From contig NZ_WUUQ01000001.1 in assembly GCF_009831105.1 (NCBI RefSeq), forward strand, positions 780,001 to 812,000: a DNA stretch of 32,000 nucleotides, written 5' to 3'. Below the pieces are notes generated by a model, which searched no databases, was not told where the DNA came from, and saw only the letters and a program-made list of their open reading frames with translations. Positions within the stretch are counted from its first letter, which is position 1; every line of letters starts with the position of its first letter. Made by a program: the position numbers and the translations under genes. Of this stretch, positions 2,305-17,096 are shown piece by piece. The DNA comes from Copranaerobaculum intestinale (lineage in GTDB: Bacteria > Bacillota_I > Bacilli_A > Erysipelotrichales > Erysipelotrichaceae).

Positions 2305-3291
2305 ATGAAACGTATATGTATGTTAGCAGTTATCACGCTGCTGATAAGCGGGTTTACCGGATGTACTCAAACCGATAAGAAACCTAAGGATGAACATAAA
2401 GAACAATTAACTGAAAAGCAAACCGACACAAATGTTTTGGTAGCTTATTTCTCCAACACCGGAACGACTGAGGGTATCGCCGAAATGATTGCAGATGAAA
2501 CCCAAGGTACTCTGTATGAAATACAACCGGAAAATTCATATACCGAGGAAGACCTAAATTATCAGGATACAGACAGCAGATCAAGCCGTGAGCAGGCTGA
2601 TTCATCAATCCGTCCGAAAATTTTGAAGTCAATCGATCACATGGAAGCATTTGATGTGATATTTCTCGGCTATCCGATCTGGATGGGAGACGCACCAAAG
2701 ATTATTCATACCTTCCTCGAAAGCTATGATTTTTCACAGAAACAAATCATTCCGTTTTGTACGTCGGGAAGCAGTGATATCACCTCCAGTGCCGAGGTAT
2801 TAAAGGCCCTTGTGCCGAATACAAAATGGCTCAGCGGCAGACGATTCTCAAAGGAATCCAGCCCGCAAGATGTGCAGAAATGGATTTCCGCTCTAACATC
2901 AACACATTCTGAGGATAAAACGAAAGCCAAAGCAAAGCTTTATTTAAAAATCAATAATCATGTTCTGGAAACAGATCTTATTGATCACGCAAGCACCCAA
3001 GCTTTGCTGGCCTTGCTTAAAGAACACGATCTGACGATTTCGATGCGAGATTTTAACGGCTTTGAGAAAGTCGGTGAGATTGGTACAACGCTTCCAAGAA
3101 CGGATGAATCCCTTACAACCAAAGCAGGTGATCTGATTTTATATGAAGGCAATCAATTTATTATTTATTACGATGTCAATACATGGAAGCTTACAAAACT
3201 AGGAGAAATCAAAAATTGTTCAGAAAATGAGCTGAAATCAATTCTTGGAAAAGGCGAAGTGAATGTAACATTATCACTATCAAAGAACTAA
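2305..3291 (+). CDS. lipoprotein: Flavodoxin_4-like domain fused to a cyclophilin-like domain
   Basis: GGAGGTGAAAGA RBS before ATG 2305. Signal peptide plus lipobox MKRICMLAVITLLISGFTGC. Flavodoxin motifs VLVAYFSNTGTTE and IIPFCTSGSS. C-terminal LYLKINNHVLETDLIDHASTQ...DLILYEGNQFIIYYD resembles the cyclophilin-like fold often fused to these flavodoxins. The 2197 upstream extension lacks an RBS. Confidence 0.75.
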   Translation: MKRICMLAVITLLISGFTGCTQTDKKPKDEHKEQLTEKQTDTNVLVAYFSNTGTTEGIAEMIADETQGTLYEIQPENSYTEEDLNYQDTDSRSSREQADSSIRPKILKSIDHMEAFDVIFLGYPIWMGDAPKIIHTFLESYDFSQKQIIPFCTSGSSDITSSAEVLKALVPNTKWLSGRRFSKESSPQDVQKWISALTSTHSEDKTKAKAKLYLKINNHVLETDLIDHASTQALLALLKEHDLTISMRDFNGFEKVGEIGTTLPRTDESLTTKAGDLILYEGNQFIIYYDVNTWKLTKLGEIKNCSENELKSILGKGEVNVTLSLSKN

Positions 3292-3480
3292 GCAGTATAC
3301 TTGATTAGATATAGAGATGTAAACCCATTTATTAAATTTTTGCGACCTTTCGATTTTCAAGTTTATAATAACTGCTTTTTGTTATTCCAGACACTGTCTT
3401 TCATGAAAATCAAGCCTGTTTAACATTATGTTTTTCAAAGGATATCTGCTTTAAAATTTTAAATTTTTTCAAATTTCACT

Positions 3481-3509
3481 TTGAATTTTTTCTTGAAATC
3501 CGATATACT
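3481..3509 (+). promoter_or_regulatory. sigma-A-type promoter for the MATE leader (TTGAAT-17 nt-TATACT)
   Basis: -35 TTGAAT at 3481-3486, 17-nt spacer, -10 TATACT at 3504-3509. AT-rich phased A/T tracts upstream. An overlapping alternative is TTGAAA 3493-3498 / TATAAC 3516-3521. Confidence 0.4.
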
Positions 3510-3518
3510 ATAACATAT

Positions 3519-3575
3519 AACGTGTAGCGATCATGCGTAATTCCAGTTGTGCATGGGCTGCGCGTTTTCTTTTTG
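3519..3575 (+). ncRNA. structured leader RNA element, copy 1 (riboswitch/attenuator candidate with terminator-like U tract)
   Basis: 10-bp outer stem AACGUGUAGC (3519-3528) / GCUGCGCGUU (3557-3566). Inner stem CAUGC/GCAUG. Apical loop GUAAUUCCAGUUGU. Followed by the U tract UUUUCUUUUU. Shares CGUGUAGC...CGUAAWUCCAG with copy 2. Confidence 0.5.
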
Positions 3576-3664
3576 AAAAAGTCCTGGAAGTAAGGTGATT
3601 TTTATTCATAAATAACGATATATCGCTTCGATAAAATATATAAGCAGATGATAAGAAAAGACAT

Positions 3665-3717
3665 AAGCGTGTAGCCAACGGCGTAAATCCAGCACCGTTA
3701 AACTATGCGCTTTTTTA
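3665..3717 (+). ncRNA. structured leader RNA element, copy 2 (riboswitch/attenuator candidate with terminator-like U tract)
   Basis: 10-bp outer stem AAGCGUGUAG (3665-3674) / CUAUGCGCUU (3703-3712). Inner stem AACGG/CCGUU. Apical loop CGUAAAUCCAGCA. U tract UUUUUUAUU runs into the AGGAGGA RBS of the MATE gene. Confidence 0.5.
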
Positions 3718-3733
3718 TTAGGAGGAAATCAAT

Positions 3734-5149
3734 ATGGAAACAGCGAATCAATATTTAGGAACCGAGCATATCGGTAAATTAATGAAGAAGTATGCCGTGC
3801 CATGTATTATATCCTTATTGGTAGGTGCGCTTTATAATATAGTCGATCAGATTTATATTGCGAATGCGAGTTATCTCGGTTCTTATGGAAATGCCGCAAA
3901 TACAGTAGTTTTCCCGCTGACTGTGGTTGCCTTGGCAATTGCGGTCATGATTGGAGATGGCTGCTGCGCGTTTGTCAGTATCAGTATGGGCAAGCGGAAA
4001 GTAGAAGCGGCGAAGCAAAGTGTTGGCAACGCAGTACTCATGAGTATTGTTTGCAGTTTATTGTTGACCTTTGTATTTTTGATATTTCAAAAACAGATTA
4101 TCACGTTATTCGGCGGTACTGTAAATATGGAAACTTTCCGATACGCGAAAGAGTATTTTTTCTATATCAGCCTTGGTATTCCGTTTTATATGTTTGGACA
4201 GGCGATGAATCCCATAATCCGCGCTGATGGCAGTCCAAAATTTGCGATGCTTTCAACCCTTGCCGGAGCAGCGATCAACTGTATCCTTGATCCGATCTTT
4301 ATCTTTGGTTTTCGTTGGGGAATGATGGGCGCAGCCACAGCTACCGTAATTGGACAGATTGTTACCGCAGCCTTTGCGGTATGGTATCTTCAGCATATGA
4401 AAGTGATCAAGCCATCCATAAAAAACTTTCATATTGACTATTCAATTTTGGGTCGAACCTTACTGCTGGGAATCACCAGCTTTCTGTCGCAGATTTCCTT
4501 AGTGATCGCGATGGCCGCAATCAATAATATGATTCAGAAATACGGGGCACTCGATGCTGTGTTCAAACAGCCGCAGTATGCACAGATTCCCATGGCAGTC
4601 GTTGGTATCGTAATGAAGTTCTTTCAAATCGTTATATCGATTGTTGTAGGCATGGCTGCTGGGTGTATTCCGATTGTCGGATACAATATGGGAGCGCAGA
4701 ATCGCACACGGGTAAAAAAGCTTTTTACTAAGTTATTGCTCGCAGAAGCAAGCGTTGGGATTGCTGCCTTCTTATTAGTCGAGCTGTTTCCACGTTCAAT
4801 TATCTCAATCTTTGGAGCAGCCCAAGAAAGCAGCTACTATACCATGTTTGCAGTTAGAGCCTTCCGCATATATTTATGCATGATTATTTTTGCCTGTATC
4901 AATAAAGCTTGCTTTATCTTTCTGCAGGCAATGGGTAAGGCATTGGCATCGACGGTTCTTTCGATGTTCCGTGAAATTGTATTTGGTGTCGGATTTGCGT
5001 TGCTCTTGCCTCTGTTTTATGGCTTAGACGGGGTTCTGTATTCCATGCCTGTTTCTGATCTATGCACTTTTATCGCAGCTGTCTATCTGATTCTGCGCAC
5101 ATATAAAGAGCTTGATGATCAGCAATTAACTTTATCGCATGCGGATTAA
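3734..5149 (+). CDS. MATE family efflux transporter (MepA/NorM-like)
   Basis: 471 aa with about 12 predicted TM helices. N-terminal LMKKYAVPCIISLLVGALYNIVDQIYI is a typical MATE signature. AGGAGGA RBS 7 nt upstream. Confidence 0.9.
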   Translation: METANQYLGTEHIGKLMKKYAVPCIISLLVGALYNIVDQIYIANASYLGSYGNAANTVVFPLTVVALAIAVMIGDGCCAFVSISMGKRKVEAAKQSVGNAVLMSIVCSLLLTFVFLIFQKQIITLFGGTVNMETFRYAKEYFFYISLGIPFYMFGQAMNPIIRADGSPKFAMLSTLAGAAINCILDPIFIFGFRWGMMGAATATVIGQIVTAAFAVWYLQHMKVIKPSIKNFHIDYSILGRTLLLGITSFLSQISLVIAMAAINNMIQKYGALDAVFKQPQYAQIPMAVVGIVMKFFQIVISIVVGMAAGCIPIVGYNMGAQNRTRVKKLFTKLLLAEASVGIAAFLLVELFPRSIISIFGAAQESSYYTMFAVRAFRIYLCMIIFACINKACFIFLQAMGKALASTVLSMFREIVFGVGFALLLPLFYGLDGVLYSMPVSDLCTFIAAVYLILRTYKELDDQQLTLSHAD

Positions 5150-11741: not shown

Positions 11742-12245
11742 ATGAGTTATGAAATTGTCTATAAAAGCGCGACGGGTAATACATTGCTGCTGGCTGAAGA
11801 ATTAAGAAAGATCTGGGGATCAGCAGATTGTATATACTTTGGAGAACCAAAAGCTTCACAGAATCTTGCAAGTCGCATAGCCATTGGATTCTGGACAGAT
11901 AAAGGAACTTGTTCAAACGATTTACAGGAGTATTTGAAGCAGCTTCACCAAAAGCAGATATTCTTGTTCGGAACTGCCGGATTTGGCGGATCTTCTGATT
12001 ATTTTGACCGCATTTTAAAAAATGTGGAAGCATGGATTTCCAAAGACAATACGATTATCGGTACATTTATGTGTCAGGGAAGAATGCCTCAGGGGATTCG
12101 GGAGCGTTACCAAAAGGCTTTGGAGGATGATCCCCAAAATCAGAAAATGAGGGATATGATAGACAATTTTGATTTGGCTTCCACCCATCCGGATGAAACA
12201 GATTTGAATCATTTACGAGAGATTTTACAGACAATCGAACCCTAA
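11742..12245 (+). CDS. flavodoxin family protein
   Basis: IVYKSATGNTLLLAE phosphate-binding loop and FLFGTAGFG. GTG 11733 is an alternative start. Confidence 0.7.
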   Translation: MSYEIVYKSATGNTLLLAEELRKIWGSADCIYFGEPKASQNLASRIAIGFWTDKGTCSNDLQEYLKQLHQKQIFLFGTAGFGGSSDYFDRILKNVEAWISKDNTIIGTFMCQGRMPQGIRERYQKALEDDPQNQKMRDMIDNFDLASTHPDETDLNHLREILQTIEP

Positions 12246-12268
12246 AGCAGCGAAGGCTGCTTTTTATT
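12245..12268 (+). terminator. intrinsic terminator
   Basis: AAGCAGC-GAAG-GCUGCUU followed by UUUUAUUU. Confidence 0.75.
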
Positions 12269-12384
12269 TATATCGTATTGGCATTATGAACGCAAAATCC
12301 ATAATAGATTTTTATTTATAAGTATAGTAAAATATGAAGGAAGTGTTATAAGAATGTTTTATTATAAATGAAAGAGGGATATGT

Positions 12385-13470
12385 ATGAGATTTAAGGAGT
12401 TAAACAAGAAGCAGAAACGTAAATTTCTAGTTTCACTCTGGCTGATTATCGTGATTGCGGTCATGTATATCGGATATGCCATAACTACGCTGTACCGGGA
12501 TCGCTGTGCGGAAAATGATTACTGGACCGAGTATTTGGAAACACCGAAAAGCATTGAAAAGGTTGTATTGGAAAAAGGCCGAAACGCTACGAAAGTGCAT
12601 GTCGGTACATATATTGAAAATTTGAAGGAAATTAACATCAAAGGCTCCAATTTCCGCGCTTCCTACAATATATGGTTCAAGTGGGAGGGAGATCCAGAGC
12701 TGGACATGAAAAATCATTTTCAGATTTATAAGGGTACTGTGAATAAAATGGAAGTAATTAAGGAATATCATGACGATCAAATTCATTACCAAAAGGTAAG
12801 GGTAGATGTAACGGTTACGAAAAATTTCTGGACCAAACGGTTTCCTTTGGAATCTCATCAGCTGCGAATGTATGTCATGTCCAATTATCCGGTTGAGCGA
12901 GTTTCGTTCATCGGCGATATTGCCGAGAGCGGCAGTAATCCTAACCTCAGCATCACTGGTTATGACCTGACCAGATTCGGTTCCAGCGTTACCGGTGTAA
13001 CCTTGAAAGGCACTGGTGATCCGACCATTGACGGCGATATTACGATGTCCGAATACATGACGGCGATTGAAATTAACCGTGCTAATTGGGGACTTTATGT
13101 GAAATGCTTTATTGCTTTGGTGGGCACGGTTACTTGGGTCATGATCGCTCTGTTTATCTGCAGCTATCATCATGTCGATCCGCTTGGCATGATTCCCGCA
13201 GCACTGTTTGGTACGGTTACCAATATTATGGTTGGAGCGAATCTGCTTCCGGATGCCATGGATCTGGGTCTTTTAGAATATGTGAACTTCTTTGGTATTA
13301 TGATTATTTTATCGGTAGCACTTGTGGTTATCAATACCAACCGCATCCGCACGAAGGATAATGATACACCGTTTGCCAGCTATTACGGCCGTCGCCTGTT
13401 CTATGTAATCTTATTCTTTATTATTCTAGGTAACGTGCTGATGCCGCTTGCTGCTTATATGTTTCAATAG
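12385..13470 (+). CDS. pentameric ligand-gated ion channel (Cys-loop/Pro-loop receptor) homolog
   Basis: The extracellular beta-sandwich pattern VHVGTYIENLKEINIKGSNFRASYNIWFKWEGDPEL is like GLIC/ELIC. The Pro-loop equivalent is RFPLESHQLRMYVMS (12841-12864). Four TM helices include an M2-M3 region, NIMVGANLLPDAMDLGLLEY, resembling GLIC NILVETNLPKTPYMTY. AAAGAGGGA RBS. Confidence 0.75.
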   Translation: MRFKELNKKQKRKFLVSLWLIIVIAVMYIGYAITTLYRDRCAENDYWTEYLETPKSIEKVVLEKGRNATKVHVGTYIENLKEINIKGSNFRASYNIWFKWEGDPELDMKNHFQIYKGTVNKMEVIKEYHDDQIHYQKVRVDVTVTKNFWTKRFPLESHQLRMYVMSNYPVERVSFIGDIAESGSNPNLSITGYDLTRFGSSVTGVTLKGTGDPTIDGDITMSEYMTAIEINRANWGLYVKCFIALVGTVTWVMIALFICSYHHVDPLGMIPAALFGTVTNIMVGANLLPDAMDLGLLEYVNFFGIMIILSVALVVINTNRIRTKDNDTPFASYYGRRLFYVILFFIILGNVLMPLAAYMFQ

Positions 13471-13475
13471 GTAAC

Positions 13476-14225
13476 ATGATGAGAAAACATATTTATGTCC
13501 TGATTGAAAAGGCTCAGGAGCACGATAAACTCAGTAAAATATATGATTGGTACATCATGGGTATCGCATTTGTCAGTATCGTACCGCTGATGTTTCGTGA
13601 GATGAATCCTTATTTGAGTACCCTGGAAACAGTAACTGTCTATTTATTATTTTTGGATTATGTTTTGCGGTGGATGACGCATGATTATCGAGTGAAGAAG
13701 CATTCTCCATGGGCATTTATCCTGTATCCTTTTACCCCCTATGCAATCATGGATATTTTATCCATTCTGCCATCCATCGGTCTGCTTCCTAAGAGCTTCA
13801 TGATCCTGCGTTTGCTGCGGTTAACCAAGATCATTCATTATTCACGAAGCTTTCAGCAGGTTGTCAATGTCTTTAAAAATGAACGTAAGACCTTGTTGTC
13901 GGTATTGCTGATCGCGGTATTCTATATCCTGGTTTCAGCTTTGATCATGTTCGTTTATGAGCCGAAGTCTACCTTCGATAATTTCTTTGATGCATTATAC
14001 TGGGCGACAACGGCATTGACGACGGTTGGTTATGGTGATGTATATCCGCATACGGATGTCGGAAAGTTCATCAGTATGATTTCTTCGCTGTTCGGGGTAG
14101 CTGTGATTGCGATGCCAGCCGGTATTGTGACCGGCGGCTTCTTGGATGAAGTACATCGTGATATTGCCCGTCGGGAGGAGCAGCATCTGAAAGAACGTCA
14201 GGAGCGTGAATCTCATGAGAAATAG
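13476..14225 (+). CDS. 6TM voltage-sensor-containing potassium channel (Kv/KvAP-like)
   Basis: Selectivity filter TVGYGD (14022-14039). S4 ILRLLRLTKIIHYSR has a basic residue every third position. Acidic residues in S2 and S3. Starts 5 nt after the upstream stop. Confidence 0.85.
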   Translation: MMRKHIYVLIEKAQEHDKLSKIYDWYIMGIAFVSIVPLMFREMNPYLSTLETVTVYLLFLDYVLRWMTHDYRVKKHSPWAFILYPFTPYAIMDILSILPSIGLLPKSFMILRLLRLTKIIHYSRSFQQVVNVFKNERKTLLSVLLIAVFYILVSALIMFVYEPKSTFDNFFDALYWATTALTTVGYGDVYPHTDVGKFISMISSLFGVAVIAMPAGIVTGGFLDEVHRDIARREEQHLKERQERESHEK

Positions 14226-14832
14226 CATGGTTAAGCGATATGCGATCGTGATGCTGATCGGAGTTGCTTTGAATCTAGGCCTGTACCAGATAGCGCACAT
14301 CTTTCATCTGCCGGCGTGGATTGATAATATCGGAACCGCATATGCAGCTTTGATACTTGAGCCTTCTGCCGGACTGCTGGTCGCTTTCGCGACCAATTTC
14401 TATCAGGCTGCATTTGTTTATAACAGCAGCTCGATCGTCTATTATGCAGTCAGTGCCAGTGCGGCGCTCAGCATCGGTATTCTAATGCGAAAGCAGGGAA
14501 AAGTCGCATGGACAAGACTGTTTTTGTCATTGCTTTGCTATTTGGCAGTGAGCTCATTGCTTTCGACCATACTGACGCTGTGGCGTACGGCTGGCGTACC
14601 GGACAGTGCATGGGAGCATCACTTCTATGATTTGGCGCTGACCGCCGGTCTGCCAAATTGGCTTTCCTGTTTATTTGGAATTGCGGTATTAAAATTCAGT
14701 GATAGTGTGGTGATGGGAGTTTTATTACCAATTCTTTTCCGCTTAACTCCTAAATTACTGAAAAATGAGCAAATCGAACAAATTGTGTCTTGGAAAAATC
14801 CATATTTCCATAAGCGAGAGGAGCTGCCATAA
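14215..14832 (+). CDS. polytopic membrane protein of unknown function (about 5-6 TM)
   Basis: AGGAG at 14199-14203. ATG 14215 overlaps the K+ channel stop (14225). Hydrophobic throughout, with no motif I recognise. Confidence 0.6.
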   Translation: MRNSMVKRYAIVMLIGVALNLGLYQIAHIFHLPAWIDNIGTAYAALILEPSAGLLVAFATNFYQAAFVYNSSSIVYYAVSASAALSIGILMRKQGKVAWTRLFLSLLCYLAVSSLLSTILTLWRTAGVPDSAWEHHFYDLALTAGLPNWLSCLFGIAVLKFSDSVVMGVLLPILFRLTPKLLKNEQIEQIVSWKNPYFHKREELP

Positions 14833-14846
14833 GGGCAGCTTTTTAA
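14822..14846 (+). terminator. intrinsic terminator ending the channel operon
   Basis: AGCUGCC-AUAAG-GGCAGCU followed by UUUU, overlapping the stop codon. Confidence 0.7.
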
Positions 14847-14877
14847 TATCATCTTAACACGCGCCGATTCGCTTCAA

Positions 14878-14886
14878 TGCTATAAT
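14878..14886 (+). promoter_or_regulatory. extended -10 promoter element TGcTATAAT
   Basis: TG at 14878-14879 and TATAAT at 14881-14886. No good -35. Confidence 0.4.
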
Positions 14887-14908
14887 GGGGGATAAAGAGG
14901 GGATGAAC

Positions 14909-16411
14909 ATGAAAAAATCAGTAATTTCAGGACTATTCGCCGTGATATTAATAGCAGGGGCATCACTGCTGGGATATATATTTAAGGCAGCTGGCTTTCA
15001 GGATGCTAACATTGTGGTATTATACATCCTGGCGGTGCTTTTGACAGCGCGTTTTACTGACGGCTATTGGATCGGGCTGATCGCTTCCCTCGCCGCAGCC
15101 TTTGCCTTTAATTACTTTTTCACCAGTCCGTATTATACATTTGCGGTTGATAATCCCAATTATATAATTACTCTGATATTTATGACCATCACTTCACTGA
15201 TCACCAGCGCGATCACTTCACTGGCGAAGCGAAATGAAGAGCAGGCACGGTTACAGGAGGCACAGGCTCGCTCTCTATACAGTCTTAATAATCAGGTCAG
15301 CCAAGCGCATGATATGCATGAAATTGCGGCTTCGGCTGTTTCCGTTATCAGTCAGATTTTAGGCTGCAGCACTGCTTGTTTACTGATACATGAAGATGAT
15401 TGCTGGGAGGAGGAATATGTACAGCAGTTGGACGGTGATCATCTGGTATATCGCAGTTTGACGGCGCGGGAGCGGCAAATGCTGAACCGCTGCAAAGATC
15501 AGTTGGCACATACCTTTGTGCGGGGGGAAGAATTTTATGAATGGCCGATCCAAGGACAGGATACGTTGCTTGGAATTTTGCGGATACCCTACATTCGCGC
15601 TAAGCATTTTAATGAGGAAGAAGCAAGTCTTATTCACTCCATGAGCGAGAGTATAGCGTTAGCCATAGATCGTATTCAATCTACTCAAAAACGCTTGGAA
15701 ACACAGGAACAAGTAGAACAGGAGCGCTATCGAAGCAATCTGCTCAGGGCGATTTCTCACGATTTGAGAACGCCGCTGACCGGGATTATGGGAACGGCGG
15801 AAATGGTCATGGATATGAGTGATCAAAAGGATGAGCGCTTTGATTTGGCCCAGGGAATCTATAACAGCTCCCAGTGGCTACACACTTTAGTAGAAAATAT
15901 TTTGAGTCTTACTCGTATTCAAGAGGGAAAACTGGAAATGCACAAGGAGCTTGAGGCAGTTGAGGAAGTAGTGGCCGGTGCTGTAGAAGCACTTCGGCAG
16001 CGGACAGAAGCCTGTCCGATCCAAGTATTCATTCCCAGTGCCGTGGTGATGGTGCCTATGGATGCTAGATTGATTCGTCAGGTATTGATCAATCTTTTGG
16101 ATAATGCCTTAAAATACGCACCCCAAGGAAGCATAGAATTACATGCTGAAGTAAAAAAACCGAATATTTGTTTTACTGTGGCAGATCATGGTGACGGCAT
16201 CCGTGATGCGGATCGATCACGCTTATTTGATATGTTTTATACAAAGGAATATCAGCATCCGGATGCGGTTAAGGGGGTCGGGCTAGGTTTAACAATATGT
16301 AAATCAATCGTTGAGGCACATGGCGGGAGTATCTGGGCAGAAAATAAAAAAGAAGGAAAGGGTGCGATTTTTGGCTTTACTCTTCCGATGGAGGTTTCTG
16401 ATGGAATATGA
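14909..16411 (+). CDS. KdpD-like sensor histidine kinase lacking the N-terminal KdpD/Usp module (DUF4118-GAF-HisKA-HATPase)
   Basis: It starts directly in the KdpD-type 4-TM region (NIVVLYILAVLLTARF...FAFNYFFTSPYYTFAVDNPNY). H-box LLRAISHDLRTPLTGI, N-box LINLLDNALKYA, G-boxes DHGDGI and GVGLGLTICKSIV. AAAGAGGGG RBS. ATG 14903 or 14885 are alternative starts. Confidence 0.88.
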   Translation: MKKSVISGLFAVILIAGASLLGYIFKAAGFQDANIVVLYILAVLLTARFTDGYWIGLIASLAAAFAFNYFFTSPYYTFAVDNPNYIITLIFMTITSLITSAITSLAKRNEEQARLQEAQARSLYSLNNQVSQAHDMHEIAASAVSVISQILGCSTACLLIHEDDCWEEEYVQQLDGDHLVYRSLTARERQMLNRCKDQLAHTFVRGEEFYEWPIQGQDTLLGILRIPYIRAKHFNEEEASLIHSMSESIALAIDRIQSTQKRLETQEQVEQERYRSNLLRAISHDLRTPLTGIMGTAEMVMDMSDQKDERFDLAQGIYNSSQWLHTLVENILSLTRIQEGKLEMHKELEAVEEVVAGAVEALRQRTEACPIQVFIPSAVVMVPMDARLIRQVLINLLDNALKYAPQGSIELHAEVKKPNICFTVADHGDGIRDADRSRLFDMFYTKEYQHPDAVKGVGLGLTICKSIVEAHGGSIWAENKKEGKGAIFGFTLPMEVSDGI

Positions 16412-17096
16412 AAAAGTAAGAATATTGGTAGTTGAGGATGATCCGCAGATTCGTAACTTTATGATGTATTGCCTGCATAATGAAGATTTTCCATGTGAAT
16501 GCGCTGCGTGCGGGAAACAAGCGTTGAGCATGCTGATCAGTGAGCCAATCGATCTCATGCTGTTAGATCTGGGTCTGCCGGATATGGATGGAATGGACAT
16601 GATCCGGCATGTCCGTGAATGGTCCCAACTGCCGATCATTGTTGTATCAGCGCGCGATCAGGATAAAGAAAAGGCGGCTGCTTTAGATGGCGGGGCGGAT
16701 GATTATATCACAAAACCCTTTTCCGCAATGGAGCTGATGGCAAGAATCCGAGCGGCGCTTCGTCATCGGAAGCAGGATACCGGTACCAAAAAAATGAGCT
16801 TTGAAGTTCGCGGTTTGAAGATCGACTATGTGAAACGGATCGTATCTCTTAACGGTCAGGCTATACATGTCACACCGATGGAATACAGTATGCTGGTGCT
16901 GCTTTCTCAAAATGCCGGTAAGGTTTTGACAACCCAGATGCTGTTGAAAACAATCTGGGGCAGCAGCTATGGAACGGATACGCAGGCGCTGCGTGCTTTG
17001 ATGGCGGGATTGCGGCGGAAAATTGAAACCAGTCCTGCTGATCCGTCTTATATTTTCACCGAAATCGGAGTTGGTTATCGGATGGCTGATGAATAA
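16401..17096 (+). CDS. OmpR/PhoB-family response regulator, KdpE-like
   Basis: ILVVEDDPQIRNF...LMLLDLGLPDMDG receiver domain. Winged-helix tail LTPMEYSMLVLLSQNAGKVLTTQMLLKTIWG...TEIGVGYR. Overlaps the kinase stop by 11 nt. Confidence 0.9.
   Translation: MEYEKVRILVVEDDPQIRNFMMYCLHNEDFPCECAACGKQALSMLISEPIDLMLLDLGLPDMDGMDMIRHVREWSQLPIIVVSARDQDKEKAAALDGGADDYITKPFSAMELMARIRAALRHRKQDTGTKKMSFEVRGLKIDYVKRIVSLNGQAIHVTPMEYSMLVLLSQNAGKVLTTQMLLKTIWGSSYGTDTQALRALMAGLRRKIETSPADPSYIFTEIGVGYRMADE

Follow-up and report, generated by a model that had tools for sequence, protein, structure and literature searches.

What brings a homologue of the pLGICs (pentameric ligand-gated ion channels), a channel of the voltage-gated potassium (Kv) type and a third membrane protein together within a few nucleotides of bacterial DNA? 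This question is raised by three neighbouring genes, here called g1, g2 and g3, of Copranaerobaculum intestinale (Erysipelotrichaceae; NCBI RefSeq assembly GCF_009831105.1). They lie in a stretch of 32,000 nucleotides (contig NZ_WUUQ01000001.1, positions 780,001 to 812,000 of the forward strand), which we refer to as the window and to which all coordinates given without a locus label belong. The explanation that we favour, tentatively, is that the trio forms one operon encoding two ion channels that would work as a pair, with the g3 protein as an auxiliary of the Kv channel. What the three proteins are and how they fold, how tightly their genes are packed, the linkage of these genes in other genomes and the natural fusions of g2 with g3 are supported by the analysis described below.

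The three open reading frames (ORFs) are co-oriented and set in an otherwise ordinary chromosomal context, the genes that flank them being housekeeping or metabolic. The unit and its boundaries are made up as follows:

12244–12271, + strand: 5′ terminator, a hairpin (12244–12263, 8 pairs) followed by a T-run; it ends the upstream flavodoxin gene and delimits the unit on its 5′ side
12278–12305, + strand: candidate promoter, sigma-70-like TTGGCA-16-CATAAT with 10/12 matches; a consensus match only
12385–13470, + strand: g1, pLGIC homologue of 361 amino acids (aa) with an extra N-terminal transmembrane (TM) helix, a beta-sandwich ectodomain and TM helices M1–M4
13476–14225, + strand: g2, predicted six-TM K+ channel of the Kv type, 249 aa; gene callers use the second ATG, at 13479
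14215–14832, + strand: g3, membrane protein of 205 aa predicted to have the S-component fold; a GTG at 14206 could serve as start instead
14818–14852, + strand: 3′ terminator, a hairpin (14818–14844) followed by a U-run, with the g3 stop codon in its loop

An initial annotation, made by a model from the DNA letters and their ORFs, had described the trio as bracketed by terminators, and both hairpins indeed fold strongly (−11.7 kcal/mol, z = −3.3 for the 5′ hairpin; −16.3 kcal/mol, z = −4.95 for the 3′ hairpin, a value equalled by 0/200 shuffles). The sigma-70-like site falls between the 5′ terminator and g1. The ORF coordinates likewise bear out the 5-nt gap between the g1 stop codon and the g2 ATG, as well as the overlap of g3 with the stop of g2, which amounts to 11 nt from the ATG at 14215 and to 20 nt from the GTG at 14206. 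Of these two starts, the ATG, with an AGGAG 10 nt upstream, is the more likely one. Co-transcription of the three genes as a single operon, which this layout suggests, is part of the tentative explanation given above. The AT-rich leader of g1 additionally contains two mini-ORFs, ATGAAGGAAGTGTTATAA and ATGTTTTATTATAAATGA (12335–12381), probably chance products of AT-rich sequence.

Is this arrangement peculiar to one genome? A scan for g1 across one genome per species yielded 80 loci, 77 of which had enough downstream sequence to be evaluated. The trio is colinear on one strand in 56 of these 77, with a median g1–g2 gap of ~12 nt and with g2 and g3 often overlapping. The initial annotation had named, as grounds for abandoning the pairing, that the two channel genes are never neighbours in related genomes; the opposite turned out to be the case. 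Trio loci span two classes of the Bacillota, namely Erysipelotrichia and several orders of Clostridia, and the organisms that bear them include Christensenella minuta (L105, 2893–5357) and Eubacterium limosum/callanderi. The genes around the trio are not conserved, every other neighbour family being common to at most 18 loci. When metagenomes were sampled independently from the g3 side (19 loci), g2 was found directly upstream of g3 in 19/19 loci and g1 was present in all 18 that could be evaluated. In the tree of g1 proteins, basal clades with g1 only (Enterococcus, Listeria, Eggerthellaceae and Anaerofustis) stand apart from a large, mostly trio-associated clade, in which the trio has been lost in a scattered manner.

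Fold, signature residues and transitive links between sequences all support the assignment of g1 to the pLGIC superfamily. An AlphaFold2 (AF2) model built with 51 homologues (predicted local distance difference test score, pLDDT, 82.6) has a helix at its N-terminus as well as a beta-sandwich and four TM helices. A Foldseek search with this model returned pLGICs, either GLIC or sTeLIC, in all top 50 positions, with GLIC matching at E~1e-16 and TM-scores of 0.66/0.77 over ~311 columns. At the level of sequence, all 60 listed matches of g1 in the PDB are GLIC, its mutants or its chimeras, at E ~0.04, and a profile of the g1 family matches a GLIC chimera at E 0.002 across the Pro-loop region. The same profile collected 1521 cluster representatives; among 37 distant relatives with 17–29% identity, Neur_chan_LBD is matched by 19 (best 1.5e-7) and Neur_chan_memb by 2. 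An hhalign comparison of the g1 family with the single GLIC sequence aligned the ectodomain alone (probability 17.5%, E 0.0014) and is too weak to stand by itself. Three elements of the protein need to be located for what follows:

12424–12495, + strand: TM0 of g1 (residues 14–37), the extra N-terminal TM helix, which follows a K/R-rich stretch
12838–12861, + strand: Pro-loop RFPLESHQ of g1 (residues 152–159), with P154 corresponding to GLIC P120 and E156 to GLIC D122
13174–13251, + strand: M2 pore helix of g1 (residues 264–289), its register taken from an alignment with 40 intermediates and GLIC

Much of what the initial annotation had picked out is found at the expected places: the Pro-loop-like FPLESHQLRMYV is present with its P154 on the GLIC proline, RFPLESHQ aligning with RYPFDSQT of GLIC, and the stretch FKWEGDPEL is present with W100 on GLIC W47. 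R232 in turn aligns with R192 of GLIC, the arginine that precedes M1. Both a Pro-loop of the form F/Y-P-x-D/E and a basic residue before M1 have been called universal in the superfamily (PMC549065). In g1, the Pro-loop F-P-x-E is conserved, and so is M4. Across 81 sequences, F153, P154, R232 and F275 are conserved at 100% and D265 at 98–100%. The resemblance of the M2–M3 region to GLIC, likewise claimed at the outset, stands by the structural match and by the alignment through intermediates; it does not stand by sequence alone, since the second stretch that HMMER aligns there (3–4 bits) is out of register and no significant sequence-only alignment is obtained. The alignment places D265 at −1′, G268 at 2′, A272 at 6′, F275 at 9′, T279 at 13′, M282 at 16′ and N286 at 20′ of M2, and the predicted acidic ring at −1′ together with the Phe ring at 9′ suggests a cation-permeable pore with a hydrophobic gate. 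As for the N-terminus, AF2 predicts one continuous helix across residues 8–51, and the K/R-rich stretch before TM0 should place the end of the protein inside the cell; TM0 is missing from many distant relatives.

In these respects, g1 resembles GLIC, ELIC, sTeLIC and DeCLIC, with which it shares the beta-sandwich ectodomain and M1–M4, the Pro-loop without flanking cysteines, the pre-M1 arginine and, as the alignment predicts, a hydrophobic residue at 9′ and acidic residues that ring the pore at its cytoplasmic mouth. It differs from GLIC in its low identity of ~14–15%, and from the known prokaryotic pLGICs in its extra N-terminal TM helix, a Phe in place of Leu/Ile at 9′, the lack of a proline in M1, its occurrence in Firmicutes and its place in a conserved, putative operon with a Kv channel. 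Inventories of prokaryotic pLGICs report contexts with PBP, Cache, MCP-N and Na+/H+ symporter proteins, and neither a K+ channel nor Firmicutes (PMC549065, PMC4795631).

Some relatives of g1 have unusual architectures of their own. One 473-aa protein (P0207; locus L104, 473–1894, from Logan ERR12076098) consists of an S1–S4 voltage sensor (Pfam Ion_trans 4.5e-15, profile positions 4–114 of 241), an extra TM helix and a pLGIC ectodomain and TM domain (1.1e-42 against the g1 family profile). It is a single example on a 3.4-kb contig, the only voltage-sensor fusion among 149 g1-family representatives, and no description of such a fusion was found in the literature searched. Two distant relatives, P0224 (578 aa) and P0291 (683 aa), carry long cytoplasmic N-terminal extensions that resemble an XRE-type helix-turn-helix (HTH) domain, with a weak HTH_3 match in P0291 (Pfam, E 0.0022) and no Pfam match in P0224; such extensions would suggest membrane-tethered regulators built on a pLGIC scaffold. 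Finally, in a Coprobacillus metagenome-assembled genome (MAG; L029), two tandem pLGIC paralogues (1848–2927 and 3005–4081), which share 44% and 51% identity with g1, lie ahead of the Kv and S-fold genes, and it is possible that they form heteropentamers.

The second gene is much easier to place. Pfam Ion_trans, the match anticipated in the initial annotation, is found at 5.6e-26 (91.7 bits, cut-off 25) alongside Ion_trans_2 at 3.2e-16, and the best matches in the PDB are Kv2.1 (2e-20), KCNQ2, Kv1.2 and KvAP (1.6e-14). The two hallmarks that had been noticed, an S4 helix with ILRLLRLTKIIHYSR and a TVGYGD filter, are both present and conserved among 54 members of the g2 family:

13791–13850, + strand: S4 of g2 (residues 106–125), with K106, R112, R115, K118, H121 and R124 in three-residue spacing
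14022–14039, + strand: selectivity filter TVGYGD of g2 (residues 183–188), each position at least 95% conserved

The family consensus of S4, FRILRMLRIFKILHYSKSF, has R, K or H at every third residue, the g2 of the window carrying a Met in place of the first S4 Arg of the consensus; the filter is conserved in the extended form TTVGYGD, again at 95% or more for each position. We conclude that g2 is a Kv-type channel, for which voltage gating is predicted. The best NCBIfam match, a hyperpolarisation-activated archaeal model (48 bits, cut-off 300), is uninformative on gating polarity. With KvAP, Kv2.1, KCNQ and Kv1.2, g2 shares S1–S6, a periodically basic S4, acidic residues in S2 and S3 and the TVGYGD filter; it is set apart from them by a dedicated membrane partner of the S-component fold (S-fold), encoded next to it or fused to its C-terminus. 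Pfam detects no RCK/TrkA or other cytoplasmic domain in g2, which comprises Ion_trans, Ion_trans_2 and a charged tail of ~25 residues.

This last point bears on a comparison with YugO, on which, as Prindle and colleagues reportedly described in 2015, K+-based electrical signalling in Bacillus subtilis biofilms depends. Both are bacterial K+ channels, and YugO answers a chemical state by opening, which shifts the membrane potential. YugO, however, is of the 2TM type and gated by a cytoplasmic TrkA/RCK domain, whereas g2, which lacks an RCK domain, carries a voltage sensor, so that the analogy drawn in the initial annotation holds only loosely. We know of no ligand-gated partner channel of YugO.

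In the third protein, the initial annotation had seen no motif that it recognised, and thereby missed both its fold and its fusions with g2. The AF2 model of g3 (pLDDT 90.1) retrieves S components from transporters of the energy-coupling factor (ECF) type, namely ThiT, RibU, BioY, FolT and PanT, as all of its 15 best Foldseek matches (probability 0.90–1.00, TM-scores 0.41–0.57/0.44–0.67, best E 7.5e-3). A profile of the g3 family gave no match to PDB sequences. A protein identical to g3 has been recorded from an Erysipelotrichaceae MAG. In S components, an AxxxA motif in helix 1 is required for docking to EcfT, and S-fold proteins that have turned into sensors are without it (PMC11109136); no Ala pair with i/i+4 spacing is present in helix 1 of more than 2 of 45 g3-family sequences. 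By its model, g3 is thus a protein with the S-component fold and without the ECF-docking motif. It shares the six-helix fold with ThiT, RibU, BioY and FolT, and the lack of the docking motif with the S-fold sensor kinases (5TMR-LYT; PMC11109136). What distinguishes it from known S-fold proteins is its partner. Those go with an ABC module, a kinase, a methyl-accepting chemotaxis protein (MCP), a phosphatase or NRAMP, g3 with an ion channel; in PMC11109136, kinase, MCP, phosphatase and NRAMP partners are described, and the words 'channel' and 'potassium' are absent.

The tie between g3 and the Kv channel is closest where the two genes have become one. In the DNA of 10 out of 79 loci (L019, L026, L027, L028, L033, L037, L038, L045, L079 and L096), a single in-frame ORF spans g2 and g3; on the g1 tree, these loci fall into at least four clades that are separate from one another. 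Homologues of g2 with 424–435 aa represent such fusions, in which the motifs of both halves are kept (proteins P0345, P0351, P0355 and P0406), and isolate genomes such as that of Ohessyouella blattaphilus are among those that encode them. As the C-terminus of the Kv channel and the N-terminus of the S-fold protein are both cytoplasmic, the fusion is topologically sound. Judged from their sequences, these Kv–S-fold fusions appear to be a new channel architecture. The suggestion that the third protein is an accessory subunit or a ligand handler, which had been put forward without knowledge of either feature, gains real support from the S-component fold and the natural fusions; in the more specific form that they allow, g3 is probably a small-molecule-sensing or regulatory module on the cytoplasmic C-terminus of the g2 channel.

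In seven loci of one clade (L034, L043 and L044 in addition to the four listed, each with the coordinates of its own locus), the gene for a second S-fold protein, a distant paralogue of ~250 aa whose C-terminal tail is charged, is inserted between g1 and g2:

L021, 1215–2006: second S-fold paralogue
L023, 7112–7834: second S-fold paralogue
L037, 7061–7843: second S-fold paralogue
L040, 7068–7823: second S-fold paralogue

The C-terminus of this paralogue is also found in a deletion remnant of 155 aa (L107, 3537–4004), joined to the first 91 residues of a pLGIC.

How might the three proteins act together? In the mechanism that we propose, g1 would be a pLGIC-type receptor channel, homopentameric and with its ectodomain outside the cell, g2 a tetrameric voltage-gated K+ channel and g3 an auxiliary membrane subunit of the latter. 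An external chemical or ionic cue would open g1, and the ensuing entry of cations would depolarise the cell. This voltage change would gate g2, whose K+ flux would reset the membrane potential and alter the K+ content of the cell, and also its water content where an aquaporin is present, with g3 tuning the response of g2. Within this scheme, we infer the assembly into pentamer and tetramer, the ion selectivity, the direction of gating, the voltage coupling and the physiological output. A search for positions of a physical interface on g1 that would be specific to trio genomes was negative, with a single position differing; because this is the one trio-specific position, an indirect coupling via voltage or ions is preferred over a dedicated contact surface on g1. 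A more far-reaching version, in which the trio would be a chemo-electrical excitability unit composed of a depolarising ligand-gated pLGIC and a voltage-gated K+ channel carrying its own S-fold ligand sensor, we regard as doubtful; in that version, the S-fold sensor would constitute a previously undescribed class of Kv auxiliary subunit or domain.

Beyond the trio itself, the neighbour that bears most on these ideas is an AqpZ-like aquaporin of the MIP family, the most frequent extra neighbour of the trio. In 18 of the 77 genome loci, its gene is the immediate upstream neighbour of g1 (16 of the 18 share the strand of g1, with gaps of 16–290 nt), and it is present in 6 of the 19 metagenome loci; there is none in the window. 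The loci concerned belong to several families, and two of them have g1 only, without Kv or S-fold genes. The proteins match Pfam MIP at ~1e-55 and score 205–239 bits with the NCBIfam model for aquaporin Z, just below its cut-off of 256. Examples, again in the coordinates of each locus, are:

L005, 2291–3049: AqpZ-like aquaporin
L024, 5221–5925: AqpZ-like aquaporin
L062, 3412–4131: AqpZ-like aquaporin

Several observations weigh against two channels working as a pair. The g1 protein itself has no Pfam or NCBIfam match at E ≤ 0.1, so that the Neur_chan_LBD and Neur_chan_memb models, which the initial annotation had expected to be matched, are not passed. The part of its model from M2 to the M2–M3 region is the least confident one (pLDDT 55–70), and the register of M2 comes from a multiple alignment with a GLIC sequence that was checked only in the stretches shown by the PDB matches. 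In 21 of the 77 evaluable loci, g1 occurs without g2 or g3, meaning that the partners are separable, and the L107 lineage has kept g2–g3 intact with g1 decayed to the remnant mentioned above. The aquaporin neighbour, moreover, suggests a control of K+ and water, i.e. of turgor, at least as much as electrical signalling. The latter point is taken up by an unlikely, yet serious, alternative according to which the trio is a valve for turgor or volume control that moves K+, and water via AqpZ where present, upon osmotic or ionic change, with g1 sensing an osmolyte or ion and no signalling being involved. That K+ is the main osmolyte of bacteria fits this idea, as does the position of the AqpZ-like gene directly upstream of g1; however, about three quarters of the loci, this window included, are without an aquaporin, no mechanosensitive or osmoprotectant genes are linked to trio loci, and the need for a voltage sensor and an S-fold sensor is left unexplained.

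If g1 were instead a non-conducting receptor in one heteromeric complex with the Kv/S-fold channel, controlling the latter by direct contact, the strict co-inheritance of the trio in the g3-side sampling, the unusual extra TM helix and well-conserved M4 of g1 and the HTH-like cytoplasmic extensions of some relatives, which hint at transducer roles, would find an explanation. Such a complex is nevertheless improbable, given the mismatch between five-fold and four-fold symmetry, the pore-type residues that are equally conserved in g1 copies without g2 and g3 (which leaves the one trio-specific position) and the 21 evaluable loci where g1 stands alone. No ECF module is found in the window or conserved near the trio, but the genes of shared (group II) ECF modules usually lie in another part of the genome, and g3 could in principle be an ordinary S component that imports a micronutrient via a shared EcfAA'T, the channels being passengers or charge compensators. 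The match of its fold to ThiT and RibU, its weak matches to ECF_trnsprt and the CD3073 family of S components and, in its homologues, the UniRef name and a weak PF07155 match are in favour of this view, which we consider very improbable: g3 falls well short of the curated cut-offs (ECF_trnsprt, 15 bits, cut-off 30.7; CD3073 family, 35 bits, cut-off 180), no position of helix 1 has the A...A pair of the AxxxA motif in more than 2 of the 45 sequences, and Rfam detects no riboswitch, be it in the whole window, in 11 related loci or, at a permissive threshold, in the leader of g1. In addition, g3 is never found away from g2 in the 19 loci sampled from its side, and its fusions with the Kv channel have been seen in at least four clades. 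The evidence is all comparative, which leaves room for an inherited synteny without functional coupling; this we hold to be extremely improbable, as the linkage persists across two classes and several orders despite a complete turnover of the flanks, the genes are separated by a few nucleotides or overlap, and g2–g3 fusions recur. Two ion channels acting as a pair, with g3 as auxiliary of the Kv channel, remain the explanation that we tentatively prefer.

Regulatory genes near the trio were considered as well. In the window, the trio is followed by a gene for a short KdpD-like histidine kinase (14885–16411; DUF4118, GAF, HisKA and HATPase domains, without the N-terminal KdpD/Usp part) and one for a KdpE-like response regulator (16311–17096), with no kdpABC in the window. 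A functional link of this pair to the trio was rejected because the pair is not conserved beside the trio in other genomes. Divergently upstream of the trio, six loci (L003, 3492–5560; L004, L005, L019, L028 and L080) carry genes for a histidine kinase of the GHKL type and a response regulator of the LytTR type. This pair could be a lineage-specific regulator; as a conserved one it was dismissed, being upstream in these 6 loci only. A role in anti-phage defence was likewise dropped, there being no PADLOC match for the three proteins and the flanks being housekeeping or metabolic.

The component parts of the locus are thus of known kinds, and it is their conserved combination and the fusion architecture that appear to be new. 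No description of the pairing, the Kv–S-fold fusion or the aquaporin link was found in the literature searched, which leaves out most subscription journals, so that this absence is not proof.

GLIC and ELIC have become structural workhorses of the neurotransmitter-receptor field. To our knowledge, the roles of pLGICs in unicellular organisms remain unstudied. Domain architectures, it has been proposed, could yield much insight into what prokaryotic pLGICs do (PMC4795631). In this regard, a whole clade of pLGIC homologues genetically tied to a Kv-type channel, with some hosts that can be grown and manipulated, such as Christensenella minuta and Eubacterium limosum/callanderi, makes a physiological role testable. 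The Kv–S-fold fusions, for their part, extend the idea of the S-component fold as a sensor (PMC11109136) to predicted ion channels, and the aquaporin neighbour provides a concrete hypothesis of K+ and water control to set against the signalling one. Should the excitability unit be real, gut Firmicutes would turn extracellular chemical cues into shaped transients of membrane potential and K+, and with the trio a prokaryotic pLGIC would for the first time be placed in a physiological setting.

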